NCBI GenBank assembly: GCA_045535205.1
Contig: JAZSLF010000141.1
Coordinates: 1 to 59,503 of the forward strand
Length of the DNA stretch: 59,503 bases
Origin: Eubacteriales bacterium
Lineage (GTDB): Bacteria > Bacillota > Clostridia > Oscillospirales > CAG-272
Reading direction: 5' to 3'
Notes under the pieces: generated by a model
Database searches by the model: none
The model's input: the letters and a program-made list of their open reading frames with translations, nothing else
What the model was told of the DNA's origin: nothing
In this document: positions 509 through 37,041 of the stretch, piece by piece
Layout of the letters: each line of letters begins with the position of its first letter
Position numbering within the stretch: the stretch's first letter is position 1
Program-made: the position numbers and the translations under genes

Positions 509-640
509 AGCCTTCTCCAAATTCATTTAAGAATATTCTATATAAATTATATAGGAGAGAGCACTTTCTGTCAAGAGCGATAAAAGAGAACTTTCCAAAA
601 CCATACTGCCAACAGCATAAATCTTTTTATTAAAAATCAG

Positions 641-669
641 TTGACTAACATATAAATTTGTGTTATACT
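641..669 (+). promoter_or_regulatory. Candidate sigma-A promoter upstream of tRNA-Pro
   Basis: TTGACT (641-646), 17-nt spacer, TATACT (664-669). A TGT directly 5' of the -10 gives an extended -10. It lies about 95 nt upstream of the tRNA. Confidence 0.45.
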
Positions 670-765
670 TCAATGTACATCAAATATTGGAAGGGTGCAG
701 TTTCGGAGAAACTGGCGCTTTGTGTTTTCATAGCGAGTGCAAAATTTAATATTCAACTATTATTT

Positions 766-841
766 CGAGGTGTAGCGCAGTTGGTAGCGCGCCAGTTTCG
801 GGTACTGGAGGCCGCGAGTTCGAGTCTCGCCACTTCGACCA
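766..841 (+). tRNA. tRNA-Pro (anticodon CGG), CCA encoded
   Basis: Manual cloverleaf. Acceptor CGAGGTG/CACTTCG (one G-T pair). D arm GCGC-AGTTGGTA-GCGC. Anticodon arm CCAGT-TTCGGGT-ACTGG. T arm GCGAG-TTCGAGT-CTCGC. Ends in A-CCA. Total 76 nt. Confidence 0.9.
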
Positions 842-873
842 GCTCTCAAGCGTTTTGCTTGGGAGTATTTTTT
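807..873 (+). repeat. Direct repeat copy 1: 3' third of tRNA-Pro plus its trailer hairpin and T-run
   Basis: GGAGGCCGCGAGTT (807-820) and the 51-nt block 823-873 recur at 1035-1048 and 1094-1144. The trailer CTCAAGC-GTTTT-GCTTGGG plus T6 looks like the tRNA terminator. Confidence 0.9.
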
Positions 874-1034
874 CATCTTATCCAGTACACGAAACTGGGT
901 ACCAGTTTTGGGGCAAAGTACCCGACCGCCGCCTGTGGCGGATAAAGGGAGGGTTCTTTGGGTGCAGCGGTCGAAATTCTGCGAAGTCTTGACGAGCAAA
1001 GAATTTCGGGCACCGCAAACGGCGGCGTAGCCGG

Positions 1035-1144
1035 GGAGGCCGCGAGTTTGAATTCTCCTGTGGGAGAATTCAAAGTTTATACTCGCATGGGTAAGTCTCG
1101 CCACTTCGACCAGCTCTCAAGCGTTTTGCTTGGGAGTATTTTTT
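1035..1144 (+). repeat. Direct repeat copy 2: tRNA-Pro 3' fragment with a 45-nt insertion in the T-loop, plus the same trailer/terminator
   Basis: 1035-1048 is identical to 807-820, and 1094-1144 is identical to 823-873. The 2 nt CG of the T-loop are replaced by 45 nt (1049-1093) containing the hairpin TGAATTCTCC-TGTG-GGAGAATTCA. No matching 5' tRNA half lies upstream. Confidence 0.85.
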
Positions 1145-1193
1145 TGAAAGAGTCCTCAAGCAGACTTGTCTGTTTGAAATTCTCTTTGGTATA

Positions 1194-1231
1194 TAAAAAA
1201 ACCGACAAGTTGAAGCTTGTCGGTTTTTTAT
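1194..1231. terminator. Bidirectional rho-independent terminator (end of the island operon; also closes the tRNA region)
   Basis: A7, then ACCGACAAG-TTGAAG-CTTGTCGGT (1201-1224), then T6. The A-run and T-run allow it to work on both strands. Confidence 0.8.
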
Positions 1232-1368
1232 TTTATCTGTCTCAAAAACAGAGGGCATTATTTTTGACCCGATGAAGATACGCTAAGCACTTTTTAAGAG
1301 TACCAAGAGTTATCCTCCAAAGCGATCTGACGGGTAAAACTCAATTCGTTAAAACATGGTATAGATTA

Positions 1369-2505
1369 TTACTGAATAATGGGCAGGATTATGATCTGAC
1401 CCACAAATATTGAATCAGGATCGCTGATACCGTTGAGTGCAAGAATGATATTAACGGTTCCATGATAATCTATTCCGTAATCGTTGCAGATTTTAAGCAA
1501 GGAGTCGCCTGCCTCAACTGTATGAGAAACAAAGCCGACAAGCTTATCCTCTCCTTCAACGGAAACGTCACCTATAAGGTTTTTGACCTGCTGTATTACT
1601 TCTTCATGTGCTTCAATTGACGCTTCATTGTTTTCGACACGGCCAACGAGCCCCTCTACGTTTGTGCCCGAAGTATCAACGGGCTCATCGGTAAGAAGAC
1701 TCTGCAGATCTTTAATCGTACTGCTTTGCTCGTCAATGATCTCCGCTTGTTCCTGAAGCTTGAGGATCGCAGCCTGCTGCTGTTTCATTTGCTCGTTATA
1801 TTTTTTGTTTATATTGATAACGAAGCCGCTGAGAACAATGGTTGCAACACATAGGAACGACACAAGTGCCGTAATCAGCCTGCCGGGTGCCGCAGCGGTG
1901 CTTTTTTTAGGAGAATCAACTCTCTTTTGCTCGATCTTTATGACCTTGCCAACCTCATCGTATATATAATAACCTTTAAGCTTTTCGGTTTTTCCGTTTT
2001 TCCATTGGAAAAAGCCTCTGAGATTTTGAATGGGGTCAATGACGTAGGCCACCTGAAAAGGCATATTGAAAAAGTTGTCCTGAATGAAAAGGTCGTAGTT
2101 TGAAAGAAAAATGCCGTAGTTGGGATGAGTATGCTGCCAGCCGATGATCTTTTTATTGGGATAAAGAATATCGTGCTGTTTATGTACGTAGTCCCACGTT
2201 TCATGAGTGAAGGTCAACGTAGAAGCAGAAGCGTCAGTATATTTTGCTTCAATATAATCGGAAATAACAACGTGTGTTTTTCCAAGCTGCTCACAATAAT
2301 CGCCTATCAGAATAGTACCCAGCTCTTTTGATGTGTTTGAAACGGCATATTTTTCAAGAGCTCTGTATACGTCTTGCTTAATATAAACCTTCACGTCATC
2401 GGGTTCAAACTCACCAAAAGAAAGAAAATTGAGAGGTAACTGTACGCTTCCTCCTTCAGTTTTTGTTTCTTCGACTGAAAATTCTATATCAAAATCTTTT
2501 TCCAC
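1369..2505 (-). CDS. JAB/MPN (JAMM) metallopeptidase - TM - coiled coil - LysM protein (JAB-B)
   Basis: The JAMM motif HTHPNYGIFLSNYD fits HxHx7Sx2D. One hydrophobic helix is present (LITALVSFLCVATIVLSGFVI), followed by a Q/E-rich coiled coil. The C-terminus is LysM-like (HTVEAGDSLLKICNDYGIDY...NGISDPDSIFVGQIIILP). I prefer the GTG start at 2505, which is preceded by AAAGGAGAG directly after the upstream stop. The ORF-track start at 2556 would overlap the upstream gene by 37 nt. Confidence 0.85.
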   Translation of the reverse strand: MEKDFDIEFSVEETKTEGGSVQLPLNFLSFGEFEPDDVKVYIKQDVYRALEKYAVSNTSKELGTILIGDYCEQLGKTHVVISDYIEAKYTDASASTLTFTHETWDYVHKQHDILYPNKKIIGWQHTHPNYGIFLSNYDLFIQDNFFNMPFQVAYVIDPIQNLRGFFQWKNGKTEKLKGYYIYDEVGKVIKIEQKRVDSPKKSTAAAPGRLITALVSFLCVATIVLSGFVININKKYNEQMKQQQAAILKLQEQAEIIDEQSSTIKDLQSLLTDEPVDTSGTNVEGLVGRVENNEASIEAHEEVIQQVKNLIGDVSVEGEDKLVGFVSHTVEAGDSLLKICNDYGIDYHGTVNIILALNGISDPDSIFVGQIIILPIIQ

Positions 2506-2519
2506 CTGTATCTCTCCTT

Positions 2520-3437
2520 TTAGATATTCGAAATAATCGTTATCGTCACAATCCAAGCAACGATAGCAATAACAAGTGCGACAGTATTAACTCCGCCGTT
2601 TTTCTGAACGTACTGAGTTCTGTAGGGCTCACTCATTGTCTTTAGCTGATTTGCGTGTTTTTCAAGCCACTTCATGTATATATAGTTGCTGAATATACCC
2701 GCAACGATATATCCGCCCAAAGCCAACACCGATAAGAATGGAACACCGATCAAAGAAATTAAAAATAAACCGCCGAACATCCCGCATCCGTAGCCATACA
2801 TTTTACGGTATATAAACCAGAAGGGTGTAACCAAAAATGCCGCTGTGTTCCACGTGTTCTTTTTATTTTGCGATTTCATCTCTTGAAATTTTGATACATA
2901 ATAGTCCTTGTTAGCACCGATCAACACCTCTACGTCGGGATCAATGACGGTACTCGCTTGTTGACTGTAAGCATTATGATCGTATGAGCTCGTATTCTGC
3001 TGATACTGCGTTGTATTCTGCTGATACTGCGGAGTGTATGCCGACTGAGAGGTGCCGTTTTGCTGAGTATAAGCGTAAGGATCCGTATTAGCAGGGTTTG
3101 ATTGAGTACAAACGGGAGCAGCCGAGGGCTCTTTCAACCGATTGCCGCATCGACTGCAGAACGCAGAATCACCCGAGTACTTTGTACCGCATTTGCTGCA
3201 ATAAATTACTGAAGCCGCAGAATCATCCTCGTAGATAAGCTCCGTGGCGGTAACAGTATCGGAAACACCGCCCGCAGCCTTTATGGTTCCGGTACAGCCG
3301 AAGGTGGTACAGCCTTGATTTTCTACCCAACAGTCCTTATGATGAGGCATATCACAGTTGCTGCATACAACAATGTCATCATTTTCTTTAAATTCAGTTT
3401 TGCAAAAAGGACATATCTTTCCAAAATATATGCTCAT
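2520..3437 (-). CDS. RING-like (prokaryotic RING/treble-clef) + zinc-ribbon + multi-TM protein (RING-1)
   Basis: The N-terminus CPFCKTEFKENDDIVVCSNCDMPHHKDCWVENQGCTTFGC has C-x2-C...C-x2-C..HH..C...C..C cross-brace spacing. A zinc ribbon CSKCG...FCSRCG follows, then a Q/Y/T-rich linker. The C-terminus has 3 hydrophobic helices and looks DUF2628-like (FWFIYRKMYGYG). Confidence 0.8.
   Translation of the reverse strand: MSIYFGKICPFCKTEFKENDDIVVCSNCDMPHHKDCWVENQGCTTFGCTGTIKAAGGVSDTVTATELIYEDDSAASVIYCSKCGTKYSGDSAFCSRCGNRLKEPSAAPVCTQSNPANTDPYAYTQQNGTSQSAYTPQYQQNTTQYQQNTSSYDHNAYSQQASTVIDPDVEVLIGANKDYYVSKFQEMKSQNKKNTWNTAAFLVTPFWFIYRKMYGYGCGMFGGLFLISLIGVPFLSVLALGGYIVAGIFSNYIYMKWLEKHANQLKTMSEPYRTQYVQKNGGVNTVALVIAIVAWIVTITIISNI
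2992..3031. repeat. Tandem 21-bp repeat x2 inside the RING-1 linker
   Basis: GTATTCTGCTGATACTGCG occurs at 2992-3010 and 3013-3031. It encodes the QYQQNT duplication in the low-complexity linker. Confidence 0.85.
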
Positions 3438-3438
3438 T

Positions 3439-4578
3439 TCAGTTATCCTCGCCGTTTGTGTTATCGGAAGGCTCTCCGTTATCGAAATCGCCGTTGTTTA
3501 CCTTGTTATCATCTTTCTGATTGCTGTCGGCATCGTCAGCATTACCGTCTGAAGCGCCGTCAATATTTGAATTACCGCTTTCATCTGCGTTTTGATCCGT
3601 ATTGCCGGTGTTTGTGTTAGTTCCCTGATTGGTGACTTCAGCTGTAGGATCTCCGTTTACGTTTTCGCCGTCGTTTGCCGCTTCGTTTGAAGAAGCATCG
3701 ATCTCGCCGAGGCTTTCGTCAGTTGATTCTTGGAGCTCTTTGAGGGAGTTTTCAGCCTGTTCAAGCTCATTTTCAAGCGCTGAGACCTTGGTCTGCAGAT
3801 TTGTCACCCTTTTATCAAGATTAGTGAAATTCTGATTAGCGGCTTCGATAAAAAGCTTTTGCTGCTGTTCAAGATTTTCGATCTTATTATGCTGACTTAT
3901 ATTCAAAACGGATAAAACGACTATCGAAACAACAAGAATTGCAATAATAAAGCTCTTTAAATTCAGCGAAGATTCGCTTGTTACCGAGCCGGCGTCGTCA
4001 GCCTCAACCTCTCCTTTGATCTTAGCACCCGTTTTATCAAACTTGAAAAAGCCTTTGCATCTTTCTATTTTACCGTTTATCCAGAAGTAAAAGCCTTCTA
4101 TATTTTGAATGGGGTCAACAACGTAAGCTATCTGATATTCTTCTTTGAAGAAGTTTTCCTGAATAAACTTATCGTATTCGGAAAGAAAGATGCCGAAGTT
4201 GGGGTGAGTATGGATCCAACCGACGATCTTCTGACCGGGATACTTTCTATCCATTTCCTTATGAACAAAGTCCCACGTTTCATGGGTGAATTTCAATGTG
4301 GTGGGAGTTGCTTCACAATATTTAGCTTCGATAAAACCCTTTATTATAATATTGGTTTTACCAAATTCTTCGATAACACTGCCGATAAGCATACCGCCGC
4401 TTTCGTTCGTGGTCTTATTTTGAGTAAACTTATGTATCTCGTTATACACCGGCTGAGATATATAAATATTTTTATTCTCCTCAACACGCTCTCCTATCGA
4501 CAGAATATTCTGAGGAAGAACGTTTTCGTTTGTCGGTACATTTTTTACACTCTTTTTTGAACTTTTTTTCTTTGCCAT
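3439..4578 (-). CDS. JAB/MPN (JAMM) metallopeptidase - TM - coiled coil - acidic low-complexity tail (JAB-A)
   Basis: The JAMM motif is HTHPNFGIFLSEYD. It is a close paralog of JAB-B (FTHETWDFVHKE.../FTHETWDYVHKQ...). A TM helix (FIIAILVVSIVVLSVLNI), a coiled coil and a D/N/G/E-rich tail follow. The ATG at 4578 (MAKKKSS) has a GGAG 8 nt upstream. The ORF-track GTG at 4587 overlaps the protease stop. Confidence 0.85.
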   Translation of the reverse strand: MAKKKSSKKSVKNVPTNENVLPQNILSIGERVEENKNIYISQPVYNEIHKFTQNKTTNESGGMLIGSVIEEFGKTNIIIKGFIEAKYCEATPTTLKFTHETWDFVHKEMDRKYPGQKIVGWIHTHPNFGIFLSEYDKFIQENFFKEEYQIAYVVDPIQNIEGFYFWINGKIERCKGFFKFDKTGAKIKGEVEADDAGSVTSESSLNLKSFIIAILVVSIVVLSVLNISQHNKIENLEQQQKLFIEAANQNFTNLDKRVTNLQTKVSALENELEQAENSLKELQESTDESLGEIDASSNEAANDGENVNGDPTAEVTNQGTNTNTGNTDQNADESGNSNIDGASDGNADDADSNQKDDNKVNNGDFDNGEPSDNTNGEDN

Positions 4579-4583
4579 ATTTA

Positions 4584-5507
4584 TCACTCCAATATATCAA
4601 TATCAAAATCCGTTCTTTCTCTCGGATCATATTTCAAGTTCAAATTTTTTCTTTTTTGAAACACCAGCATTATTATCAGAATAACGTTTATTGTTACAGA
4701 TCCGCACAATGCAACGATAAGGATCAGTTCCATTAACGGCATGGATTTCAAAACGTTCCAAACGTCTGTATAGGTTTCGTTGACGTCTTTGTCAAAAAAC
4801 TCGGCGGTATCTTCCGTTTCCGACTCGTACTCCTCCCCTGCACCGTCACGTGATAATACTTCGCAAACGTTACCGTTGGCATCGAGCTCTATGCCGAGTG
4901 ACTGAACGAACTCGCACACCGCTGTCATCGGTATAGCAAGACCTATACCCTCGCTGTCAGACATTTTAAGAGTATTTATGCCGATAACGTTACCCTCGTC
5001 ATTAAGAAGCGGACCGCCGCTGTTACCCTCGTTGACTGCGGCATCTGTCTGAATGTATTTGTATTTACCCACTTCTCTTTCCTTGGCGGAAATAACACCC
5101 TTTGTAAGAGTATATGCCATGCTGTTGGGAGCACCGACGGCATATACGTCGTCACCTGTATTCAGAGCGTCGGGATCCGCAACGGTGAGTGTTGGGAAAG
5201 AAGCATCCGCAACACCCAGAACAGCTATATCCTTATCGGCGTCATAACCGACCGTATAGGCAGGAAAGCTTTCTCCCGAATAAGCCGTCAGCACAACGTT
5301 ATCAACATCGTCTATCACGTGTGCATTCGTAACAACACAGTTTTCTCCAATGGCAAAGCCGCTGCCGAGTGAGAGTCCTGACGTTACGATAAAAACAGAA
5401 CTGTATTTTTCTTCCGCATTAAAACCGATTGCGCTTGAAGACAGCGGAAGGGCGAATAATACCGCCACCGCACAGATTATAGATATTACTGCTCTTTGCA
5501 GCTTCAC
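4584..5507 (-). CDS. Secreted trypsin-like (S1/HtrA-type core, no PDZ) serine protease with C-terminal TM anchor
   Basis: A signal peptide is present (MKLQRAVISIICAVAVLFALPLSSSA). The triad contexts are VTNAHVI, DKDIAVL and GNSGGPLL. The C-terminal helix is LMELILIVALCGSVTINVILIIMLVF. The start codon is GTG. Confidence 0.85.
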   Translation of the reverse strand: MKLQRAVISIICAVAVLFALPLSSSAIGFNAEEKYSSVFIVTSGLSLGSGFAIGENCVVTNAHVIDDVDNVVLTAYSGESFPAYTVGYDADKDIAVLGVADASFPTLTVADPDALNTGDDVYAVGAPNSMAYTLTKGVISAKEREVGKYKYIQTDAAVNEGNSGGPLLNDEGNVIGINTLKMSDSEGIGLAIPMTAVCEFVQSLGIELDANGNVCEVLSRDGAGEEYESETEDTAEFFDKDVNETYTDVWNVLKSMPLMELILIVALCGSVTINVILIIMLVFQKRKNLNLKYDPRERTDFDIDILE

Positions 5508-5538
5508 GATATTACTCGCCCCCTAATTATTATTTATT

Positions 5539-7437
5539 TTATTTTGTATTGAAAACCAGCACGGAGTTACCGATAGCAATAGCATCTCCCTGACGGAGAA
5601 TGTGTCTTGCGGTTCTCATGCCGTTAACAACGGTTCCCATCGGTGTTCCGCAGTCGTGGAGCACGTATTTGCTTCCTTCAAGTACAATGTCACAGTGGTG
5701 AGGTCCGACAAGCTTGTCCTTGAAAAGAACGATGGTGTTCTTGCCGTTATTACCGATACTTGTAGTTCCGGCAAATACAAGGTATTCCTTGCCTTCAAAC
5801 TCACCTCTGATAACCTTGAGCCAAGCCTGTTTTGCAAACTGTTCAAGAAGTCCTACACCAAGACCGATCAAGAGTCCCATGATGACGATCGCAACACCTC
5901 TGGCCACTACGTCGTTAGGAATAATGTCGCATATATAGTTGAACAGGAAGCCGCCGAGGAAGCCGCCTGCCAAGCCGCCGAGAGCACAGTAAAGCATTCT
6001 TTTCTTTTCGGGCTTAATAAGACCTACGGCAACACCGATGCCGAGACCCATGATCGCCCAGCCGAGACCACGGATAAACGCAGCCGCAAAATCGGAGGGA
6101 TCGTCGCCGAGCATCGACGCATACATCCATTGTGCCAAATATCCGCTGATAAAACCAAGACCGAGCGAGACACCCGCACCTATTGCGGCATATTTGATCG
6201 CCTTTTCCTTTGAACCGTAGAAGATACCTTCACCTAATCCGAGGAACAGTCCGATAAAGAGTGCAAGTACGCCGGACCACAACGCAGTGCTTAAACGTGT
6301 AACGTTAGCCAAAGCATCTTTCAGAGCCGAGTCACTCTCATGATATTCATATTGATATGAATTATAGAGAGCTTCGCTTGATCTGTCATCATAATCTGAA
6401 TAATCATCCAGATAACCCTTTGCTTCCGCTGTTGCATATTCGGTATACCAAAGCTCAAAAGCTGAGGAATTATCGGGATCATATTTATTCTTCTTGCAGA
6501 AATCTTCGTAAATATCGTATGCTTTATCAAAGGCTTTGTCTGCCTTGTTTTCATAGTCATAATAATCAGCCAGATAAGACTTGCCCATAAGATTTGCTAT
6601 AAATACGCTATTCACGTCACTTCCGCCGGTCATTTCGGTTATTGCAAAGCCAAGAATAGCGCCGATAAGCGCCCAAAGCAAACCTTTTACGAGAATGGTC
6701 TTAAAGTTGATCTTTCCGCCCTTGACCGTACCGCCGCTTGATACTGTCTGCATTCTTTGAGCAGTAGGAACGAACTCAATTCCCGCAAGTTCCTCGGCAG
6801 TTATTTCAAAATCGTTCTCCTCGGGCTTGTTTTCCGTTATAACAGGAGCAGGGGCATTAATTACTGACTCTGTACTGACAAGGGTCTCAGCCGCTTCTGC
6901 AGGCTGTTCTTCGGCGATAACTGCACCGTCGTCATCAAACAGATCTATTTCAACGGTATCCTTTGCAGAAGCATAGTCAGCAATATAAAGCTCTGCGTTG
7001 CCTACGGGGAAAAGATGCTTATTTTCCATAGCCCACTGTGCCGCTTCTGCAGAAAGAGGACTGTAGGAGTTCCATGACTTATACTGGATCATATCGCCGA
7101 TATTAATGATAATATCGCTCAAGGATTCACCTGCACCCCAAATATCACCGATACAGATCTGTCCGTCTCTGAAGTTCGGATGCCAGATAGGTGTAAGTAT
7201 TTTGCAGATCGGTTTATATCTCGGATATTCAGCATGAAGCGTGATCTCAACCTCATGCCGAGCAAGTGTTTCTATTCTTCCGTCGGGCAAAAGATAAATA
7301 CCGTTTACGAAATATGTAACGTGATATTTTTCGGGCGGTTCCTCTCCGATCGGAGTAACAATGATATTTCTATGACCTGTAAAATCTTTTCTGACCTGTT
7401 CCCAGTCAGAAGCAAGACGTCTCATTCTTGCTGTCAT
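5539..7437 (-). CDS. UBC-like E2 domain - 6 TM helices - FHA domain fusion protein
   Basis: The N-terminus is RRLASDWEQVRKDF...YPRYKPICKILTPIWHPNFRDGQICIGDIW. HPN at aa 86-88 and Cys95 match E2 active-site geometry. Six Gly-rich hydrophobic helices span about aa 245-525. The C-terminus is FHA-like (GNNGKNTIVLFKDKLVGPHHCDIVLEGSKYVLHDCGTPMGTVVNG...LRQGDAIAIGNSVLVF). The start ATG is 1 nt after the E1 stop, with RBS GAGGAGGG. Confidence 0.85.
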   Translation of the reverse strand: MTARMRRLASDWEQVRKDFTGHRNIIVTPIGEEPPEKYHVTYFVNGIYLLPDGRIETLARHEVEITLHAEYPRYKPICKILTPIWHPNFRDGQICIGDIWGAGESLSDIIINIGDMIQYKSWNSYSPLSAEAAQWAMENKHLFPVGNAELYIADYASAKDTVEIDLFDDDGAVIAEEQPAEAAETLVSTESVINAPAPVITENKPEENDFEITAEELAGIEFVPTAQRMQTVSSGGTVKGGKINFKTILVKGLLWALIGAILGFAITEMTGGSDVNSVFIANLMGKSYLADYYDYENKADKAFDKAYDIYEDFCKKNKYDPDNSSAFELWYTEYATAEAKGYLDDYSDYDDRSSEALYNSYQYEYHESDSALKDALANVTRLSTALWSGVLALFIGLFLGLGEGIFYGSKEKAIKYAAIGAGVSLGLGFISGYLAQWMYASMLGDDPSDFAAAFIRGLGWAIMGLGIGVAVGLIKPEKKRMLYCALGGLAGGFLGGFLFNYICDIIPNDVVARGVAIVIMGLLIGLGVGLLEQFAKQAWLKVIRGEFEGKEYLVFAGTTSIGNNGKNTIVLFKDKLVGPHHCDIVLEGSKYVLHDCGTPMGTVVNGMRTARHILRQGDAIAIGNSVLVFNTK

Positions 7438-7438
7438 T

Positions 7439-8629
7439 TCAATCCCTCCTCAATTCTTCAAATACTTCCGGCTCATCACCGGCAAATTCATAATAGATCG
7501 TATTCATTCCAACACGAACTCCGACAATGTGCAACAAAGGAATACCGATCTCAAACAGCGTTTTATCAAGAAAATCCTCAGTTCCGTTTACGGAGTGGAA
7601 GCTGTCAAAGGACATCTGATTTCCGCATTTTTCACAAGTGAGCATTTCGCCTTTAAGCTTATGCACAGGCATATAAAGCTCTTTATGTTCGCCGCAAGTA
7701 CATTTTCCGACAGCGGCAATATCTCTGTCAAACTCAACGACAGCCTTCTCGCCCAGCTCCGAACGGCCGACGCTGAGAAGCTCGGCAAGGGTCATGGTTC
7801 TGACAGACCAATCCTTTTCCACTATGTTAGTATAGGTGTCGTGACTCATGCAGTCTGCCTTCTCCTGATACTCTACAACGTAGGAATCGTGGGTCAGACC
7901 GTTAAATACGTAGCCCTTTCCTGCTAACGTAGGAAGCTCTCTGTCACTGTGAAGCAGCTTCAGCATCTCCTGCACCTGAATACCCGCAATAACAGATGAC
8001 GATGTGGGAGTTGTCGGTATCTTGCCCTCTGCCATCTGTTCATGTGTAAGCAGAGCGCAGGATTTTCTCTTGTTAATCAATCTCCAGTCTGTTTCCGTCA
8101 TGGTGCATTCATAGCACGCACCCTGACCGGGTATAAACACACGGGCAAATCCGTTTAAGGCTTCAATTGCTCCGTCTATCCAAGGCTTGTCCACCTTATA
8201 GCAGGACTGATTGATCGCAAGACGAGCCTCTCTGTTGTCAAGTCCGCCGAGAACTACGCTCATTCTGCGAAACACACCCAAACCGACATCGTCAATTATG
8301 TTTGCAATAAAAGCCTTAGCCTTGACGTCGGGATTGATCTCCATCGCCCTTTCAGATGCCACCTCGGCTTTGTATCTGCCTACGTCTTTTGCACGATATA
8401 AGACAGAACGTGTGAGGTTGGTATTTTCAATACCGTCCATATCAAATATAAGAATTTTTCCTATTCCAAGCAAGGCAAGGTTTTTTATAAGCTCATTACC
8501 GATCGCTCCTGCGCCCACGACCATGACCGTGGCATTGTTCAGGCGATCCTGATCCCACCACGGTATAAGTCTAAGCCTACTGTATCGGTCTTCTTCAAAA
8601 TCAGAATTGTTTAATTCAATGTTTTCCAT
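7439..8629 (-). CDS. E1-like ubiquitin-activating enzyme (ThiF/MoeB/UBA superfamily)
   Basis: The nucleotide loop is VMVVGAGAIGNE. Other superfamily motifs are FDMDGIENTNLTRS and GLDNREAR. The CYEC ... CEKCG zinc site is present. The candidate catalytic Cys sits in NKRKSCALL. An extra C-terminal domain of about 120 aa is in the UFD position. Confidence 0.85.
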   Translation of the reverse strand: MENIELNNSDFEEDRYSRLRLIPWWDQDRLNNATVMVVGAGAIGNELIKNLALLGIGKILIFDMDGIENTNLTRSVLYRAKDVGRYKAEVASERAMEINPDVKAKAFIANIIDDVGLGVFRRMSVVLGGLDNREARLAINQSCYKVDKPWIDGAIEALNGFARVFIPGQGACYECTMTETDWRLINKRKSCALLTHEQMAEGKIPTTPTSSSVIAGIQVQEMLKLLHSDRELPTLAGKGYVFNGLTHDSYVVEYQEKADCMSHDTYTNIVEKDWSVRTMTLAELLSVGRSELGEKAVVEFDRDIAAVGKCTCGEHKELYMPVHKLKGEMLTCEKCGNQMSFDSFHSVNGTEDFLDKTLFEIGIPLLHIVGVRVGMNTIYYEFAGDEPEVFEELRRD

Positions 8630-8640
8630 CGCATCACCTA

Positions 8641-9372
8641 TTATTTGGCATTAGACAAGCTTCTCATTTTTACGATAAAATAGAATAAGAAGATAAGACC
8701 GATTGCGATAAGTAAATTTCCAAAGCCTGCAGCTACGATCTCAGCTAAAGCTCTGACGTTGTTGGCAGTCTGAGCCGCAGCATTCTGAATACCCGTATAT
8801 GCATCGCCGCCGTACGAACTTGCAGATTCATAAGCACCCGTATACTTTGAAAGAGTCGAAAAGCCTAAAATCATTGACACAATACTTGCGAGCATTCCGA
8901 ATATGCAGGGAATTCTGCCTTTGATTTTTTTCTTGGCTTTTTGGGGACTTTCGTCGGGAGCAACTGTGTATTTAGGGCCTGTGCTGTACGAGGGCGCCGC
9001 ATTATAATTGGGAGCGCTTGTCTGAGGAGCTGTCAGAGACGCACCGCACTTGCTGCAGAATAATTCTCCGTCATTTTCCGCATTTCCGCACTGTGAACAA
9101 ACTGCGCCTGCGGTGATCTCGGGCTGAAGACGAAGAACGTCGCCGTCTTTGATACCCGCTTCGCCGAGCGTCTGAGCTTCAAGAAGCTGACGGCCCGTTA
9201 CCTTATGTATGAATTTATAGCTGATGGGGTTGCCGTCGGGGCCAACTGAGGGAAGCTTGATCTTCTCAACAAGCTTTACCATGATAATCCCGCATTTAAT
9301 ATCGTCAGGCAAACCAACCTTCTGCTCTTTATTACCTGTTGCATCTACGATAACTACATTAACTTTTCCCAT
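8641..9372 (-). CDS. Ubiquitin-like beta-grasp domain - zinc ribbon - 2 TM protein (Ubl precursor candidate)
   Basis: Aa 1-89, KVNVVIVDATGNKEQKVGLPDD...TLGEAGIKDGDVLRLQPEITAG, shows a Ub/YukD-like pattern and ends in LRL...AG (Gly89 = 9106-9108). CSQCG...FCSKCG follows. Two hydrophobic helices are IPCIFGMLASIVSMILGF and LAEIVAAGFGNLLIAIGLIFLFYFIV. RBS AGGAGAAAC. Confidence 0.75.
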   Translation of the reverse strand: MGKVNVVIVDATGNKEQKVGLPDDIKCGIIMVKLVEKIKLPSVGPDGNPISYKFIHKVTGRQLLEAQTLGEAGIKDGDVLRLQPEITAGAVCSQCGNAENDGELFCSKCGASLTAPQTSAPNYNAAPSYSTGPKYTVAPDESPQKAKKKIKGRIPCIFGMLASIVSMILGFSTLSKYTGAYESASSYGGDAYTGIQNAAAQTANNVRALAEIVAAGFGNLLIAIGLIFLFYFIVKMRSLSNAK

Positions 9373-9525
9373 TTTGTTTCTCCTGCTTTTTTAATAGATT
9401 TTATAATAGTACATTCCTTAATGAATGTTATGTTTGAAAAATAATAAGTTCAAGAGGAACCCAAAGCGCCGCATTTTCCAAGCGGTGCCCGTAAACTGAG
9501 TTCTGTTTTTAATATTTCATTGAAA

Positions 9526-9864
9526 TTAAATTTTTTGTCCGCACTTTGAACAAAAAGCCTGACCGCTTCGCAGCGCCGCACCGCATCTAGAGCAGAATTT
9601 CGGTGCTGAGTTCTTAGGACTGCCGCATTTTGCGCAGAATAACTCTCCTGCACCAAAAACGTAACCGCATCTGACACAAACGTCTGAAGTGCCACTTTCA
9701 GCTTCATGATCTCGTTCCAGACAGCCAAAGGTCGTACACCCGTCATTTTCACGCCAACAGTCTATATGATGCGGAATATTACAAGCGGGACATACTTTGA
9801 TTTCTTCATCCTCTTTTATCGGGGTTTTACAAAAAGGACAAATCTTTCCAACATAATTTTCCAT
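9526..9864 (-). CDS. Soluble RING-like (prokaryotic RING/treble-clef) protein with two zinc ribbons (RING-2)
   Basis: CPFCKTPIKEDEEIKVCPACNIPHHIDCWRENDGCTTFGC is a paralog of the RING-1 N-terminus. CVRCG..FCAKCG and FCSRCG..FCSKCG follow. No TM segment. RBS GGAGG. Confidence 0.8.
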   Translation of the reverse strand: MENYVGKICPFCKTPIKEDEEIKVCPACNIPHHIDCWRENDGCTTFGCLERDHEAESGTSDVCVRCGYVFGAGELFCAKCGSPKNSAPKFCSRCGAALRSGQAFCSKCGQKI

Positions 9865-9875
9865 ATAAACCTCCG

Positions 9876-10916
9876 TTAGTTGATTACGGGAAGACCGCTG
9901 ACAATGCTTTCCACGCTGTCACTTGCATCTGAAACCAACGTAGCCATCTCGCTTATCGTATCAAGCGCATCGTTTACACTTTTAGAAGAATAATATCCCG
10001 TACCGTAATAAAGATCACCCAATTCTGTTTCTATAGTTGAAAGTGCAGAGATATATTTTACACACAATTCGTCACCGGTAGAGACTTCCTTTGCGGCAGC
10101 TACGGCATTTTCAGCACTCGTATGTGCGTATCCTGCGTACAGCTTTGTAACGTAATAGGATGATGACTTTGCAGCACTTGTTACATTTTCAATACACTCC
10201 GAACAATCGCTCATCGAATTGAGAACGCATCTACTGACACCGTTGTACTTTACATAGTCGGAAAGCTCTAATACTTGCGATATGTAACGCCTGACGTTTG
10301 TACCATCAGAGGAGTTTATTCTCAACAATCCACCGATAACGTCGTACATTTCATACTTCTCAAGAAGCTCCGTATTAACAAGCCAACCCGACAGCTCGAC
10401 ATACTGGTTATCGGAAACCTCGTCTACGAACGCATCTATGATCTTGTCTCTGAATAACATCTGCCCGATGGGAGTCAACGAATTATAATTCGATTCAATG
10501 ATCGTATATGACGGATCTGAAGATTTTATTTCATCAATTATGCTTTCTGCCATTCCGTTTAAATGAACATATCCGCCGATGGCAGCTGCCGCAAGAATTC
10601 CGACAATTATTAATATTACGACAAGTGCCTTTGATTTTGACTTTTTCTTCTTTTCTTGTTGTACGATGTTTTGATTGAATTGTGAAATAGCATCAGACAC
10701 CTGAGGAGAGTTCGGCTGCGGTGAATAGGTCTCTCCCTTCTTGTGACCGCAATTAGTACAAAACACCTTGTTTTCCGTCAATTCAGTTCCGCAAAATGCG
10801 CATACAACGATGCCATTTCCGTTGCTTTCGGGTGCTGACTGATTATCAGCTGTCTGAGATACAGCATCTGACACCTCAGAGGTTTGATCCATTACCAAAT
10901 TTTTTTCGTCATTCAT
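9876..10916 (-). CDS. Zinc-ribbon - TM - extracytoplasmic domain protein (unknown function)
   Basis: The N-terminal ribbon is CAFCGTEL..FCTNCGHK. The TM helix is ALVVILIIVGILAAAAIGGYV. I do not recognise the ectodomain of about 220 aa. RBS AAGGAGA. Confidence 0.7.
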   Translation of the reverse strand: MNDEKNLVMDQTSEVSDAVSQTADNQSAPESNGNGIVVCAFCGTELTENKVFCTNCGHKKGETYSPQPNSPQVSDAISQFNQNIVQQEKKKKSKSKALVVILIIVGILAAAAIGGYVHLNGMAESIIDEIKSSDPSYTIIESNYNSLTPIGQMLFRDKIIDAFVDEVSDNQYVELSGWLVNTELLEKYEMYDVIGGLLRINSSDGTNVRRYISQVLELSDYVKYNGVSRCVLNSMSDCSECIENVTSAAKSSSYYVTKLYAGYAHTSAENAVAAAKEVSTGDELCVKYISALSTIETELGDLYYGTGYYSSKSVNDALDTISEMATLVSDASDSVESIVSGLPVIN

Positions 10917-10933
10917 ATTTTCTCCTTATTCTT

Positions 10934-11599
10934 TTATCCTTGAGGCAAACACGTGCCGCAAGGTTCATATTCTCCTGTTTCAAATTGTTCTACGGTTAAT
11001 CTGCTTGTATTACTTTTGTTTTTTACGTGAATACAGTCTGCCTGATGATACTTGTTACCGGTCTCGGTAATCACGTAATCCCCATAGTATTCCTTATCCC
11101 TTGTAAGCCATCCGACTCCGATCAGCCCAGCAATAAGAATCAGGCACACTGCGCTCAGCCAAACTTTATTTTTATTAACGAAAAACGCTCCTTTGTCAAT
11201 TATTGACGGATTAGTCAAGCTGTAGACAAACTCGTTTGACTCAGCCTCTTGCTGAACGTCACGTCCCAGATAGGTGTTTTCCTCGATATGTCCGCAAAAA
11301 ATATGACCTTCCTCATGAAGCAAGACATTAAACTTTTCATCTGCCGACAGATCCTCATGCACAAAAACAAGTCTGTTTTTAGCGTCTGCATAAGTGAAAC
11401 CCTTTCTCTCCGAAACGAGACGGTCTAAGTTTAACCGTTCAATAATCAACGCCACATCTTCATCGTTAAATATGGAGTTGAATTCAATTATCGTATAACC
11501 TTGAGATGCGATAATTCTTTTCAGTCTTTCCGCAGTCGGACAGATAAGACCGTACTTTTTTCTGAAAGCTTTAGCGGCTTTTTTTCCCGATACACTCAT
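10934..11599 (-). CDS. ImmA/IrrE-family zinc metallopeptidase with TM helix and C-terminal H/C metal-binding motif
   Basis: HEXXH lies in LLHEEGHIFCGH. The TM helix is VWLSAVCLILIAGLIGVGWL. The C-terminal motif is YHQADCIHV...YEPCGTC. The start overlaps the XRE stop (ATGA). Confidence 0.75.
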   Translation of the reverse strand: MSVSGKKAAKAFRKKYGLICPTAERLKRIIASQGYTIIEFNSIFNDEDVALIIERLNLDRLVSERKGFTYADAKNRLVFVHEDLSADEKFNVLLHEEGHIFCGHIEENTYLGRDVQQEAESNEFVYSLTNPSIIDKGAFFVNKNKVWLSAVCLILIAGLIGVGWLTRDKEYYGDYVITETGNKYHQADCIHVKNKSNTSRLTVEQFETGEYEPCGTCLPQG

Positions 11600-12207
11600 A
11601 ATTTACCGTTCCCGCTTCCCTTAACATTTTTCAGCGCCCGCTTCACAGCCTCGTCATCCTTGGTTATACCCTTGCTAAACGATCTGCCGTCGAAAGACTT
11701 TATCACAGCCTCACCCGGAAGATTACTGCACCGTGCATACTCCACCATTATCAACGTGCGTATTGCGTGAATGGCTTGTTCGTCGAGAATATCTTTTATG
11801 TTTTCGATTGAAATTCCGACAAGCCGTTCAAAGCTCGTAAAGTCTTCGCTTTCGTTTATACGATCTACCAGCTCTGAGGGAAATGCCGATATGGCTCTGA
11901 TCATTTTGTGTGTCGATTGATTGTAATCGAAAAAAAAGATCAAGGAAAGATACGTATTCCACGACATTTTTCTGTCTTTACGCTCGATCCAACCATAGTT
12001 TTGTCTTGAAATACCTATTATCTTTGCGAGTGCTTCTTGAGATATGTCAGCCTTCGCTCTCAACATCGGTAATTCGTCTGTAAGAATGTCTATGTATCTG
12101 TCTTTTTCTTCGGGTGTGATCTGCCATCTTTCTTTACTGTCCAAGATTTTCATCTCCTTCCCCGTTTTTTCGTAGAGTATTTTACTATACGAAAATGTTT
12201 GTTTCAT
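11596..12207 (-). CDS. XRE-family helix-turn-helix regulator
   Basis: The HTH is ISQEALAKIIGISRQNYGWIERKDRKMSW. The ATG at 12207 overlaps the recombinase stop (ATGA) and reads through IR-L. An alternative start is ATG 12153 (MKILDSKERW), preceded by GGGGAAGGAG. Confidence 0.8.
   Translation of the reverse strand: MKQTFSYSKILYEKTGKEMKILDSKERWQITPEEKDRYIDILTDELPMLRAKADISQEALAKIIGISRQNYGWIERKDRKMSWNTYLSLIFFFDYNQSTHKMIRAISAFPSELVDRINESEDFTSFERLVGISIENIKDILDEQAIHAIRTLIMVEYARCSNLPGEAVIKSFDGRSFSKGITKDDEAVKRALKNVKGSGNGKL
12167..12201. repeat. IR-L: 35-bp perfect inverted repeat flanking the recombinase gene (candidate recombination core site)
   Basis: TTTTCGTAGAGTATTTTACTATACGAAAATGTTTG is the exact reverse complement of 13301-13335. 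It contains an internal dyad, TTTTCGTAGAGTA / TACTATACGAAAA (13-nt arms, 1 mismatch), like the paired arms of tyrosine-recombinase core sites. Confidence 0.9.
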
Positions 12208-13157
12208 TCGTAATTCAGTTTTTTCAGATTTTGCCGTTTCATCTCAAAAGAGGAATGTACGTATCTGTTAAGAGTTATATTTACGTTTGAATGTCCGAGC
12301 GTTTCACTTAATGTTTTTACGTCAACACCAACCTCTACACACCGTGTTGCAAACGTATGCCGCAAGGTGTGAAAGCTAACGTTTTCTATTGAAAGCTTTT
12401 GCATTATCTTATTAAATCTGTTTTCCATTGTTCTCGGTTCGATAAATCTGTCGGCATCTCCCGTTAAAATATATGCTCCCTTTCTGTATTCTGCTGCCGC
12501 CAGTCTCTCCATTATAAAATCCTGTATAGGAATTTCTCTCACAGAGCTTTTGCTTTTGGGCGCTGTTATTGAAATATATGTTTTGTTGTTATCGTTGTCC
12601 CGCTTATGCTGAAGTCTCTGCATTGTTTTTGTTATGGTTACTTTTTTCGTCTCCATATCAAAATCCTCTATATTCAGAGCACACAGTTCCCCTATTCTTA
12701 TACCCGTATAGAAGGCAATAAGTATTCCAAGCTCAGTAAAACCCGTTTGCGTCATCAGATATTGATTTACAATAGCTTGTTCTTTGTGCGAAAGCACCTT
12801 TAATTTAACGTCAGGCTGTTTTACGGATAACAAGGTTGGGTTACAAGAAAGAGAATATCCGAGTGTTTCTGCATAATGTAGAATTGCTTTTATTATGATC
12901 GCTATGTCGCAAACGGTTTTTTGTGACAGTCCTCCGCTGTAATCGAGCCGTCCGTCTGTGGAAAAACCGATTATTGTTTCTTCTAATTTTAATAACGTTA
13001 AATCTTCTATCAGCTCGTTGCCAAGCTTTGCTTCAATATGATTTTTTAACAAATTATAATAATGAATATAGGTTGATCTTTTGGTGGTTGTTTCTTTCTT
13101 TTTGATCCATAGCTCAGCTACGTTTCTGAAATATATTTGATTATTTGAAAATACCAT
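12204..13157 (-). CDS. Tyrosine site-specific recombinase (phage-integrase family, short form without arm-binding domain)
   Basis: An N-terminal SAM-like core-binding region is present. The catalytic contexts are TGIRIGELCAL (Arg), HTLRHTFAT (HxxR) and GHSNVNITLNRYVH (His/Tyr). 317 aa. RBS AGGAGG. Confidence 0.9.
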   Translation of the reverse strand: MVFSNNQIYFRNVAELWIKKKETTTKRSTYIHYYNLLKNHIEAKLGNELIEDLTLLKLEETIIGFSTDGRLDYSGGLSQKTVCDIAIIIKAILHYAETLGYSLSCNPTLLSVKQPDVKLKVLSHKEQAIVNQYLMTQTGFTELGILIAFYTGIRIGELCALNIEDFDMETKKVTITKTMQRLQHKRDNDNNKTYISITAPKSKSSVREIPIQDFIMERLAAAEYRKGAYILTGDADRFIEPRTMENRFNKIMQKLSIENVSFHTLRHTFATRCVEVGVDVKTLSETLGHSNVNITLNRYVHSSFEMKRQNLKKLNYE

Positions 13158-13256: not shown

Positions 13257-13285
13257 TTGACAAATATGATACCATTTTGTATAAT
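13257..13285 (+). promoter_or_regulatory. Consensus sigma-A promoter inside the IR-bounded segment, facing outward (away from the operon in this orientation)
   Basis: TTGACA (13257-13262), exactly 17 nt, TATAAT (13280-13285). The predicted transcription start is near 13292, so the transcript begins just before IR-R. Confidence 0.7.
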
Positions 13286-13336: not shown

Positions 13337-13375
13337 AACCCCAGGCTATCGAAAACAGCTTGAGGTTATTTTTTT
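13337..13375 (+). terminator. Rho-independent terminator-like hairpin directly after IR-R
   Basis: AACCCCAGG-13 nt-CTTGAGGTT gives 8 of 9 pairs including one G-U, followed by A and T7. Confidence 0.55.
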
Positions 13376-13385
13376 GCAAAAAAAT

Positions 13386-13424
13386 AAGCGATATGCTTCA
13401 AAAACCGAGCATATCGCTTTTTTA
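13386..13424. terminator. Bidirectional terminator (ends the yugP-like gene on the minus strand)
   Basis: AAGCGATATGCT-10 nt-AGCATATCGCTT is a 12-bp perfect stem flanked by an A-run and a T-run. Confidence 0.85.
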
Positions 13425-13466
13425 AAACTTATCCGTTCAAAAATTTTGAGGGTATTAGGGGAACTT

Positions 13467-14171
13467 TTACCTTCTTCGTCTGTTTACCAACAGGAGAAGT
13501 CTGAGGAGCTGAGCGAGGGAGACCGCAAGTGCCGCAACGTAGGTCATGGCGGCGGCAGATAAAACCTTTTTCATTTGTCCCAGCTCTTCGCTGTCGAGAA
13601 CATTATAGGTCTCCACCGCTTCGAGAGCACGGCGGCTTGCATTGAACTCCGTCGGCAGAGTCACAAGCTGAAAAATTGTTGAAAGAGAGAATGCAATTAC
13701 TCCAAGATAAGAAATGGCAAGGAACTGCTCTCCGTAATATGACAAAAAGAAGCCTAAAATAATGAGGGGGACAGCAAGGCGTGAGCCGATATTTGTAACA
13801 GGGATGATGGCAGCTCTCACCTTAATGGGAAAATAATTTGTCGCATGCTGAACGGCGTGGCCTGCTTCGTGGGCGGCAACACCGATGGCGGCGGCTGAAA
13901 TGCTGTCGTGAGTAGCCTCTGAAAGACGGATAACGTTGCTCTTGGGGTCATAATGGTCTGTGAGCTTACCCGACACTCTTTCAATTCTTACGTTGTGAAG
14001 TCCGTTGGCATCAAGGACACGGCGGGCAGCCGCAGCTCCCGTAAAGCCTCTCTTTGACGGGATCTTAGAATACTTGTTGAATACCGAATTAACTCTCGCC
14101 TGAGCTATAAGTGCAAGAATTACGGCAGGCAGCACAAGTACGAAATAAGACATATCTGTATACCAGAACAT
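13467..14171 (-). CDS. YugP-like putative neutral zinc metallopeptidase (membrane)
   Basis: HEAGHAVQH (HEXXH), an N-terminal TM helix and C-terminal TM helices. 234 aa, typical of the family. Confidence 0.8.
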   Translation of the reverse strand: MFWYTDMSYFVLVLPAVILALIAQARVNSVFNKYSKIPSKRGFTGAAAARRVLDANGLHNVRIERVSGKLTDHYDPKSNVIRLSEATHDSISAAAIGVAAHEAGHAVQHATNYFPIKVRAAIIPVTNIGSRLAVPLIILGFFLSYYGEQFLAISYLGVIAFSLSTIFQLVTLPTEFNASRRALEAVETYNVLDSEELGQMKKVLSAAAMTYVAALAVSLAQLLRLLLLVNRRRR

Positions 14172-32181: not shown

Positions 32182-32196
32182 GGGGAAGCAATTGTT

Positions 32197-33486: not shown

Positions 33487-33490
33487 TCTA

Positions 33491-37027: not shown

Positions 37028-37041
37028 GGAGACAAGTGAAA

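Follow-up and report, generated by a model that had tools for sequence, protein, structure and literature searches.

A candidate membrane-associated ubiquitin-like conjugation system with RING-type proteins encoded by a clostridial operon

Does a compact block of genes in a clostridial genome encode a working ubiquitin-type conjugation apparatus at the cell membrane, and what might such an apparatus serve? The question is raised by an island at positions 1369–13157 of a 59,503-nt stretch of DNA (the window; contig JAZSLF010000141.1 of assembly GCA_045535205.1, Eubacteriales bacterium). An original prediction, made from the letters alone, recognized in it a ubiquitin-like protein (Ubl), an E1, an E2 fused to an FHA domain, two RING-like proteins (RING-1 and RING-2), two JAB peptidases (JAB-A and JAB-B) and a serine protease acting outside the cell (S1). 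This parts list is right: Pfam supports each of the named domains, and the profiles that were expected (ThiF, UBC, JAB, Prok-RING, FHA, LysM and Trypsin_2) were all matched (Table 1). As described below, we consider it likely that the island specifies a functional cascade for Ubl conjugation at the membrane.

All twelve open reading frames (ORFs) of the island are on the minus strand, arranged head to tail, and have the coordinates first given; their co-directional arrangement with tight junctions was reproduced. In order of transcription, the junctions measure −4, −4, 17, 11, 153, 11, 1, 31, −4 and 1 nt. The last junction, between RING-1 and JAB-B, is 14 nt long with GTG 2505 as the start codon of JAB-B; this codon, which has the ribosome-binding site AAGGAGAG upstream, is preferred to TTG 2556, the mechanically first possible start. 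JAB-A possibly starts at ATG 4578 instead of GTG 4587.

A scan of one genome per species (approximately 185,000 representatives) revealed 63 loci, in which the order (XRE-ImmA)-RING2-Ubl-E1-E2-S1-JABA-RING1-JABB recurs; the juxtaposition of these genes is thus not accidental. Among the 42 loci with enough downstream DNA, all four downstream genes were found in 28 and JAB-B in 41, while a RING2-type gene was present upstream in 31, and XRE and/or ImmA in 16, of the 35 loci with enough upstream DNA. The same operon order was observed in a 401-kb contig (L064) with independent gene calls and precomputed Pfam matches. Most of the loci come from metagenome bins of Oscillospiraceae, Acutalibacteraceae and Lachnospiraceae (a few are labelled Synergistaceae or Roseiflexaceae), the isolates among them being Lachnospiraceae bacterium MC2017 and Tissierella creatinini BN11. 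Since cultured carriers exist (these two strains and Clostridium sp. CTA-5), the function of the operon is directly testable. Relatives of the E2 protein with the same architecture number at least 805 at 90% clustering, and the 120 that were listed all contain the same three Pfam domains.

Three of the loci (L017, L055 and L056) come from bins that bear the names Muribaculaceae, Phascolarctobacterium succinatutens and Escherichia coli. These short contigs are probably mis-binned, and the apparent phylum range has to be read carefully. A further locus (L049, positions 241–5417) comprises Ubl, two tandem genes of the E2 type and JAB-B; of E1, only two short pieces (coverage 9% and 6%) are present, located between the two E2 genes. 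Decay or rearrangement may have given rise to this variant.

Orthologues of each protein were taken from the 63 loci and aligned (33–60 sequences per protein). The catalytic signatures of the E1, E2, JAB and RING proteins, originally described as intact, are present and kept in these alignments. Neither this conservation, nor the recurrent gene order, nor the profile placement of E1 and E2 given below refutes the original prediction on the three grounds that it had named. The most conserved component is Ubl, with a median pairwise identity across loci of 91%. The third codon positions of its gene are only 42% identical, so this conservation reflects selection and not recent transfer. It is unbroken up to the sequence ...LRLQPEITAG(89), whose terminal Gly89 is encoded at 9106–9108, and drops to nothing beyond. 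Among 57 orthologues from the loci, approximately nine ORFs end exactly at the Gly of ...EITAG, most have 1–10 unconserved residues past Gly89 (A, AL, GAK, VYGK, etc.), and approximately 12 bear a long tail composed of a zinc ribbon and transmembrane (TM) segments, like the copy in the window. This pattern is that of ubiquitin, NEDD8 and SUMO precursors; it appears to mark Gly89 as the processed, reactive end, and the zinc ribbon and two TM helices of the window copy would then be a removable tail.

A database search with Ubl yielded 622 clusters, many of them 89–94 residues in length, under the NCBI name EsaB/YukD family. The AlphaFold2 (AF2) model of Ubl is a confident beta-grasp, with predicted local distance difference test (pLDDT) scores of approximately 75–93 over residues 1–89. 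The top Foldseek matches of this model were ubiquitin and its variants, Caldiarchaeum ubiquitin, NEDD8, SUMO and BilA (8tyx); the comparison with Caldiarchaeum ubiquitin gave 27% identity and a TM-score of 0.72–0.76 on the target. Five lysines are invariant in the family.

E1 (median pairwise identity 73%) was placed in the ThiF fold, as predicted, by its Pfam match. Its PDB sequence matches are the active adenylation domain of Uba1 (2.5e-31), UBA7, SAE2 and UBA3, followed more weakly by ThiF (1e-19) and MoeB (1e-16). Pfam recognizes a single adenylation domain. The motifs of the protein are GAGAIGNE (GxGxxG), DMD...NLTR, a CxxC at 172/175 and a Cys within KRKSCALL, which is Cys191, not 190, by residue count. 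GxGxxG, C172/C175 and Cys191 are conserved in at least 90–98% of 60 orthologues. Cys191 is located in the crossover loop, 16 residues past CxxC; the corresponding distance in ThiF and MoeB is approximately 12 residues. The C-terminal domain of 140 aa holds an invariant CxC...CxxC.

The N-terminal part of E2, originally assigned to the ubiquitin-conjugating (UBC) fold, was placed there by profile: UQ_con scored 34.1 bits (cut-off 27), and the best PDB matches of the first 177 residues are eukaryotic UBC enzymes (UBE2C, Rad6/UBE2A-B, UBE2K and UBE2N). HPN (86–88) and Cys95 align with their counterparts in UBE2C, Rad6 and UBE2K, and are invariant in the orthologues, within the invariant block ICIGDIWGAGES. 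As had been pointed out, the protein therefore keeps Cys, unlike Bub (6E/DUF6527), a bacterial conjugation system with Ser chemistry. An AF2 model of the full-length protein, based on an alignment of 30 sequences (73–87% identical to the query), was confident for the TM bundle only, and a PDB profile search with the same alignment did not improve the UBC match. Since this bundle comprises six TM helices, the UBC and FHA domains should both lie inside the cell. Median pairwise identity across loci is 81% for the UBC domain, 53% for the TM region and 83% for the FHA domain.

The fusion of an FHA-fold domain to E2 was confirmed by Pfam and by PDB matches, the best of which are the FHA domains of GarA, OdhI and Rv1747. 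The idea that it reads phosphothreonine did not stand. In canonical FHA domains, Arg and Ser contact the phosphate and Asn takes part in binding of the phosphothreonine peptide. Alignment with GarA showed that only Gly and His of the Gly-Arg, Ser-x-x-His, Asn set are retained, Arg, Ser and Asn being replaced by Asn, Gly and Met, respectively. Because these residues are replaced, and the replacements are conserved across the family, the domain is unlikely to be a phosphothreonine reader. We propose that it may instead be a docking module for Ubl or another protein partner; docking of Ubl is suggested by the FHA domains of YukB, which hold YukD non-covalently (PMC12637312).

Both RING proteins contain eight conserved Cys/His residues with the spacing C-x2-C-x12-C-x2-C-x3-H-x3-C-x6-C-x4-C, a Prok-RING_1 ligand pattern that is C4HC3-like, and the eight ligands of RING-1 are conserved in 38 orthologues. 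RING-2 is only 112 aa long in the window, without TM segment or ectodomain, while most of its orthologues (250–380 aa) are composed of a RING, zinc ribbons, a TM segment and a variable ectodomain. Comparison of 36 RING2-type proteins revealed detectable similarity in every pair of cytoplasmic parts, but in only 25% of the ectodomain pairs; the ectodomains fall into at least six classes, including Big_2 immunoglobulin (Ig)-like and TPR. The RING2-type proteins resemble a set of receptors built on a common E3 module. The protein encoded at 9876–10916, next to RING-2, is a relative of the RING-TM-ectodomain proteins without a RING; its orthologue in locus L008 (42% identity) has one at the N-terminus. 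No Pfam match was found for its 230-aa ectodomain.

The position of the 153-nt gap downstream of RING-2 is occupied in some loci. In L064 (7926–8510) it carries a gene of the HEPN family pEK499_p136 (5e-15), and in L001 (2409–2954), L020 (5539–6084) and L054 (6818–7366) a 181-aa ORF with an RxxxxH motif, for which no significant Pfam match was found.

The JAB domains (median pairwise identity 68–71%) have an intact HxHx7Sx2D motif that is invariant in the orthologues, as are HTHPNFGIFLSEYD of JAB-A and HTHPNYGIFLSNYD of JAB-B. The best PDB relatives of JAB-B are Rpn11, AMSH-LP, CSN5 and the Rpn11-like protein of Caldiarchaeum (9e-5). The S1 protein (56%) consists of a signal peptide (aa 1–26), the protease domain with conserved His/Asp/Ser motifs, a C-terminal TM segment and a short cytoplasmic tail, ...DFDIDILE. 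Its best match to the NCBIfam Do/HtrA/DegS models was 4.7e-51, all matches being under the family cut-offs and limited to the protease part. No PDZ domain was found in S1, unlike in HtrA/DegP/DegS as defined, and a TM anchor with a conserved tail is present instead.

The tail of S1, ...RERTDFDIDILE (4587–4661, aa 283–307), is conserved, and the linker preceding it is not. Some cytoplasmic component of the system may dock onto this peptide.

By hydropathy, a TM segment or signal peptide is present in seven of the nine non-regulatory proteins, RING-2 and E1 having none; the original count was eight of nine. The proposed combination of cytoplasmic conjugation and deconjugation domains with extracytoplasmic modules nevertheless proved coherent in topology. 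From their N-terminal position and the lack of signal peptides, we infer that the JAB, RING, UBC and Ubl domains are cytoplasmic, while LysM, the coiled coils and the ectodomain, which follow a single TM segment, should be located outside.

Table 1. Features of the island and its surroundings (positions in the window; aa, amino acid residues).
Feature	Position	Strand	Evidence or remark
Tyrosine recombinase/integrase, first gene of the block	12204–13157	−	Phage_integrase 5.7e-26; SAM-like N-domain; PHROG integrase 1e-53
XRE-family helix-turn-helix regulator, likely operon repressor	11596–12207	−	HTH_31 2.4e-5; HTH_3 2.2e-4
ImmA/IrrE-type (M78) metallopeptidase with TM segment (aa 146–164), likely anti-repressor partner of XRE	10934–11599	−	Peptidase_M78 1.6e-4
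Zinc ribbon (aa 38–60)-TM (aa 97–115)-230-aa ectodomain protein	9876–10916	−	Zn_Ribbon_1 3e-5; hydropathy
RING-2, E3 candidate: Prok-RING_1 (aa 1–50) and two zinc ribbons	9526–9864	−	Prok-RING_1 9.1e-12; DZR 1e-9
Intergenic gap of 153 nt between RING-2 and Ubl genes	9373–9525		RING-2 not continued by any ORF
Ubl precursor: ubiquitin-fold part (aa 1–89; 9106–9372), then zinc ribbon and two TM helices	8641–9372	−	YukD 1.2e-10
E1, ThiF-type adenylating enzyme: Cys191 (codon 8057–8059), 140-aa C-terminal domain	7439–8629	−	ThiF 1.3e-54
E2: UBC-6TM-FHA protein	5539–7437	−	UQ_con 2.4e-8; FHA 8.2e-11; Yop-YscD_cpl 2.4e-11
E2, UBC domain (aa 1–160)	6958–7437	−	HPN 86–88; Cys95 codon 7153–7155
E2, six TM helices and helical outside loop (aa 245–530)	5848–6705	−	AF2 model
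E2, C-terminal FHA-fold domain (aa 541–632)	5542–5817	−	Pfam
S1: HtrA/DegS-like serine protease domain, outward-facing	4584–5507	−	Trypsin_2 1.9e-31
JAB-A: JAMM peptidase, TM segment (aa 212–230), predicted outside coiled-coil/low-complexity region	3439–4587	−	JAB 1.4e-7; Prok-JAB 1.3e-5
RING-1, membrane E3 candidate: Prok-RING_1 (aa 1–50)-zinc ribbon-Q-rich linker-DUF2628-type TM	2520–3437	−	Prok-RING_1 4.5e-14; Zn_Ribbon_1 4.4e-6; DUF2628 3.1e-5
JAB-B: JAMM peptidase-TM-predicted outside coiled coil-LysM (peptidoglycan-binding), revised GTG start	1369–2505	−	JAB 4.7e-6; LysM 5.4e-10
Hairpin with 15-bp stem between A and T runs, likely two-way terminator closing the operon	1196–1229		Terminator scan

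Taken as one inducible operon, the island would specify a complete Ubl cascade of the thioester type, put together at the cytoplasmic side of the cell membrane. Ubl would be made as a precursor, here with a tail of a zinc ribbon and two TM helices, and cleaved past Gly89 by a JAB peptidase, which would release an 89-residue ubiquitin-fold protein ending in ...TAG. E1 would adenylate Gly89 and load Ubl onto Cys191, and the modifier would then be handed to Cys95 of the membrane-embedded E2. The Prok-RING_1 proteins would promote its discharge onto target lysines at or near the membrane, RING-1 being placed in the membrane and RING-2 being soluble here, though membrane-anchored in most relatives. 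The two JAB peptidases would also reverse the modification. We infer each of these chemical steps, as well as the assignment of the RING proteins as E3. The outward parts (LysM, the HtrA-like protease and the Ig-like, TPR or helical ectodomains) would constitute the input side of the device, and XRE and ImmA would presumably switch the operon on under stress.

The assignment of the two regulators can be examined in more than one way. The Pfam scores of XRE are under the cut-offs (HTH_31, 25.0 bits with a cut-off of 27; HTH_3, 21.7 bits with a cut-off of 23); the domain call is backed by a PADLOC match to a "control protein" (4e-6) and by the XRE-ImmA pairing in the loci. ImmA scored 21.9 bits with Peptidase_M78 (cut-off 22), matched a PHROG metallo-protease (9e-8) and contains a HEEGH motif; no match to ImmA was found in PADLOC. 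The XRE and M78 genes may form a pair of the CapH+CapP type; their adjacency and both domains are present and conserved. An XRE + M78 pair (CapH+CapP) accompanies 31% of Bub operons, where it has been read as a sign of immunity or stress (PMC11601596; PMC11601603), and Bub operons are located in mobile elements (PMC11601596).

The C-terminal tail of ImmA is rich in Cys/His and includes KYHxxxC...PCGTC, and its TM segment is kept in the orthologues. The tail may bind metal. We know of no membrane-anchored ImmA in classical ImmR/ImmA or CapH/CapP pairs.

Analysis of 143 flanking genes in 27 loci identified six tyrosine integrases and three or four serine recombinases, corresponding to approximately a third of the loci. 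Together with the HEPN gene of L064 and the XRE + M78 pair, these recombinases point weakly to a mobile, accessory module for stress or conflict, and the signalling or defence device first suggested is likewise weakly supported by its context. A role in a horizontally moving, accessory response of this kind (anti-phage or anti-competitor), as opposed to housekeeping, is the likeliest one considered, yet in itself somewhat doubtful. A more specific form of it is distinctly doubtful: outside-in signalling, in which receptor-like TM RING ligases with swappable ectodomains, a LysM-anchored JAB peptidase and an HtrA-like "site-1" protease would sense events at the wall. Phage attack, wall damage or competitors would then lead to conjugation of the near-invariant Ubl inside the cell, the degenerate FHA domain docking Ubl non-covalently, a device either taken over from type VII secretion or common to both.

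Several results weigh against a conjugating system with such a role. The flanking genes in the 27 loci are mostly housekeeping genes with scattered defence genes, and no clear signature of a defence island was found in them. Searches of phage genomes, plasmids and viral contigs did not reveal the E2, the plasmid matches being limited to unrelated actinobacterial FHA proteins. In PADLOC, no match was found for E2, Ubl or either RING protein, and E1, the JAB peptidases and S1 gave only weak partial matches. Neither PADLOC nor NCBIfam yielded a system- or family-level assignment, the matches being limited to generic E1, JAB and HtrA domains. No att repeats bounding the island were detected in the window. 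As for the enzymes, pLDDT was below 50 for the UBC domain and most of the FHA domain of E2, so the UBC fold is assigned from sequence evidence alone. The profile of E1 residues 251–396 gave only noise against the PDB, a ubiquitin-fold domain not being seen, and the RING proteins had no significant PDB match by sequence. The island copy may also be partly degenerate, considering RING-2 without TM segment and ectodomain and its neighbour without RING. Finally, YukD of B. subtilis, the namesake of the Ubl family, has been reported not to be conjugated (PMC1779556) and acts as a non-covalent assembly factor in type VIIb secretion (T7SSb), where it associates with the FHA domains of YukB and lends stability to the core complex (PMC12637312).

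These YukD data support the rival view that the Ubl is not conjugated at all but is a non-covalent structural subunit gripped by the FHA domain of E2, with E1, E2 and JAB serving otherwise or modifying the complex only. An FHA domain devoid of phosphothreonine-binding residues is, after all, conserved almost as well as the Ubl itself (83% and 91%, respectively). We nevertheless judge this view improbable. The conservation of Ubl stops precisely at Gly89, beyond which the tails are dispensable and variable; the E1 Cys, E2 HPN/Cys, the RING proteins and two JAMM peptidases accompany Ubl in nearly every locus; and the operon has no gene for an EssC/FtsK ATPase, EssB or WXG100. Docking by FHA and conjugation are moreover compatible, so the proposed docking is no argument against a conjugation cascade. 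The absence of EssC and WXG100 also led to the rejection of a type VII secretion module as such. T7SSb (YukD/EsaB; FHA of YukB/EssC) shares with the island a YukD-family protein and an FHA fold on a polytopic membrane protein. The island differs from it in lacking an FtsK-type ATPase, a pseudokinase and WXG100, and in having E1, E2, RING and JAB together with a probably processed C-terminal Gly. Sulfur transfer of the ThiS/MoaD type was rejected in view of the E2, RING and JAB genes.

The original prediction offered an arrangement akin to endoplasmic-reticulum-associated degradation (ERAD), in which the membrane E2 and RING would tag misfolded or orphan membrane proteins for extraction and degradation. 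In ERAD, the TM-anchored E2 Ubc6 works with the RING-CH membrane ligase Doa10. The island recalls this pair in its membrane E2 and its membrane RING with C4HC3-like ligand spacing, homology not being shown beyond the shared domains, and the five invariant lysines of Ubl could support chains. The operon, however, encodes neither an AAA+ unfoldase (a Cdc48 counterpart), a proteasome nor a cytoplasmic protease; its sole non-JAB protease faces outward, and its sensor domains face the cell wall. Occurrence in 63 of approximately 185,000 species representatives, near recombinases, is furthermore the pattern of an accessory module and not of a core pathway. Quality control of this type is consequently unlikely. 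Still less credence is due to phospho-dependent signalling, where a Ser/Thr kinase would phosphorylate a partner, the FHA domain of E2 would read the phosphothreonine and conjugation would follow. The FHA fold is indeed present, as its Pfam match and its likeness to GarA, OdhI and Rv1747 indicate. Against this stand the conserved replacements of Arg, Ser and Asn, an equally good Pfam match to the cytoplasmic FHA-like domain of YscD from type III secretion, and the lack of any kinase or phosphatase gene in the operon, here or in L064. The FHA-like domain of YscD reportedly serves as a non-phospho scaffold. An accidental or decaying juxtaposition, i.e. genes left behind without function on a defunct mobile element, is scarcely credible. 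It might explain the shortened RING-2, the neighbour without the RING of its L008 orthologue and the lack of att repeats. The recurrence of gene order and content in 63 genomes, the intact and tightly coupled ORFs, the invariant catalytic residues and the strong purifying selection on Ubl speak against it, and it is effectively refuted by synteny and conservation. A membrane-associated conjugation cascade thus remains the reading that we prefer.

How does such a cascade relate to known systems? The kind of operon is already known from prediction, and the island is a further member of it, not a new kind. We take it to belong to the class of Ubl-E1-E2-RING-JAB operons predicted by Burroughs, Iyer and Aravind in 2011; the Pfam family Prok-RING_1 (PF14446) presumably stems from the same study (Mol Biosyst 2011). 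Its abstract reportedly put forward E1/E2/RING/JAB operons as the machinery that conjugates YukD-like Ubls, and the authors are said to have described oxyanion-hole residues of a eukaryote-like kind for the E2s and, for the E1s, a ubiquitin-fold domain. The bacterial versions of Prok-RING_1 operons reportedly carry TM helices. Here likewise, two Prok-RING_1 proteins and a YukD-like Ubl occur beside E1, E2 and JAB, as seen in the window, the 63 loci and L064. The island had at first been regarded as exceptional; given that Prok-RING_1 is a Pfam family and that hundreds of relatives were found, its novelty was overstated. No experimental work on this operon family was found in the literature searched.

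Among systems studied by experiment, the closest in composition is the ubiquitin operon of Caldiarchaeum subterraneum, the proteins of which are understood to be soluble. This single operon unites the five functional classes seen here (ubiquitin, E1, E2, a small RING E3 and Rpn11), and the system has been reconstituted in vitro; complete bacterial operons of such a kind are mentioned in the same report (PMC5654768). The island differs in that its Ubl ends in Ala-Gly, as opposed to the Gly-Gly of Caldiarchaeum ubiquitin (PMC5654768), in that nearly all components are membrane-anchored, and in having two RING proteins, two JAB peptidases, an ecto-protease and dedicated regulators.

Three groups of characterized bacterial systems were considered and rejected as identities for the island. 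In the Bil system (BilABCD), Ubl, E2, JAB and E1 are likewise encoded separately and the chemistry is of the thioester type (as predicted from sequence for the island); the Bil Ubl alters a phage tail protein target instead of serving as a degradation mark (PMC11601603). Bil is described without a RING or other E3 and without membrane anchors, and its E1 comprises tandem inactive and active domains. It was rejected because the island E1 has a single adenylation domain, RING proteins are present, and neither E2 nor Ubl matches PADLOC models; the match of the island E1 to BilD is weak and partial (2.6e-7). Bub also performs E1/E2/JAB-related conjugation, often with an XRE repressor and an M78 peptidase, and uses oxyesters (E1 Tyr, E2 Ser) together with a DUF6527 serine protease (PMC11601596). 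In the island, Cys191 and Cys95 are kept, DUF6527 is missing and the serine protease is an HtrA-like Trypsin_2 protein. Cap2 of the cyclic oligonucleotide-based antiphage signalling system (CBASS) is an E2-E1 fusion acting on a CD-NTase, whereas the island E2 is a separate gene; CBASS Cap2/Cap3 was rejected because only the E1 domain partly matches the PADLOC E1-E2 models and a CD-NTase gene is lacking.

Some features of the surroundings of the island were also recorded. A tRNA-Pro gene (766–841) lies beyond its 3′ end and is associated with a perfect 51-nt direct repeat (copies at 823–873 and 1094–1144), the first copy of which includes the 3′ end of the tRNA; a near-copy of the tRNA-Pro T-arm is located at 1035–1051. 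The repeat looks like a scar of integration at tRNA-Pro. It now brackets approximately 220 bp only and does not recur in the vicinity of the integrase (13.2 kb). The related islands are not consistently flanked by tRNA genes. Beyond the integrase, a perfect sigma-70 consensus (TTGACA, 17 nt, TATAAT) was identified on the plus strand at 13257–13285, directed away from the island towards a 62-aa ORF (13374–13562). In L064, the island integrase is adjoined (1–1005) by a gene for a protein of more than 1000 aa with a precomputed match to RNA-dependent RNA polymerase of the eukaryotic type (RdRP; PF05183).

Elsewhere in the window, the minus strand encodes a 1250-aa protein (17422–21174) with dockerin type I as its sole Pfam match (1.3e-10), which hints at a cellulosome-bearing clostridial host. 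A plus-strand cluster of low GC content (0.34–0.43) extends from 31306 to 42844, between tRNA-Gln (30895) and tRNA-Thr (43030). It encodes an ABC-2 permease, a Wzt-type ATPase, a GT2 glycosyltransferase, two ATP-grasp enzymes, an ornithine cyclodeaminase-like protein, an amino-acid permease, a DegT aminotransferase and an epimerase/dehydratase, and is probably a surface-polysaccharide locus.

In composition, the operon encodes the most eukaryote-like ubiquitin-type system of bacteria. Its E1 and E2 are nearer to Uba1 and UBC enzymes than to ThiF, it contains RING candidates and Rpn11-like peptidases, and its modifier, which comes from precursors, is conserved almost as tightly as ubiquitin. 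None of CBASS Cap2/Cap3, Bil and Bub has been described with a RING-type E3, and the only RING-dependent prokaryotic cascade found to have been reconstituted is the archaeal one of Caldiarchaeum. To our knowledge, Clostridia have no proteasome. If the proposed cascade is real, RING-assisted ubiquitin-type tagging would operate in bacteria devoid of this machine, providing a simple system in which to study the role of such tagging, and the finding would bear on the pre-eukaryotic assembly of the set of E1, E2, RING and deubiquitinating enzymes. Its membrane setting, together with domains that face outward, suggests that events at the envelope may be linked to modification of cytoplasmic proteins, a connection not yet described in bacteria. 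Should the outside-in reading be true, receptor-coupled ubiquitin signalling would have in this system either a bacterial forerunner or a parallel that arose by convergence.

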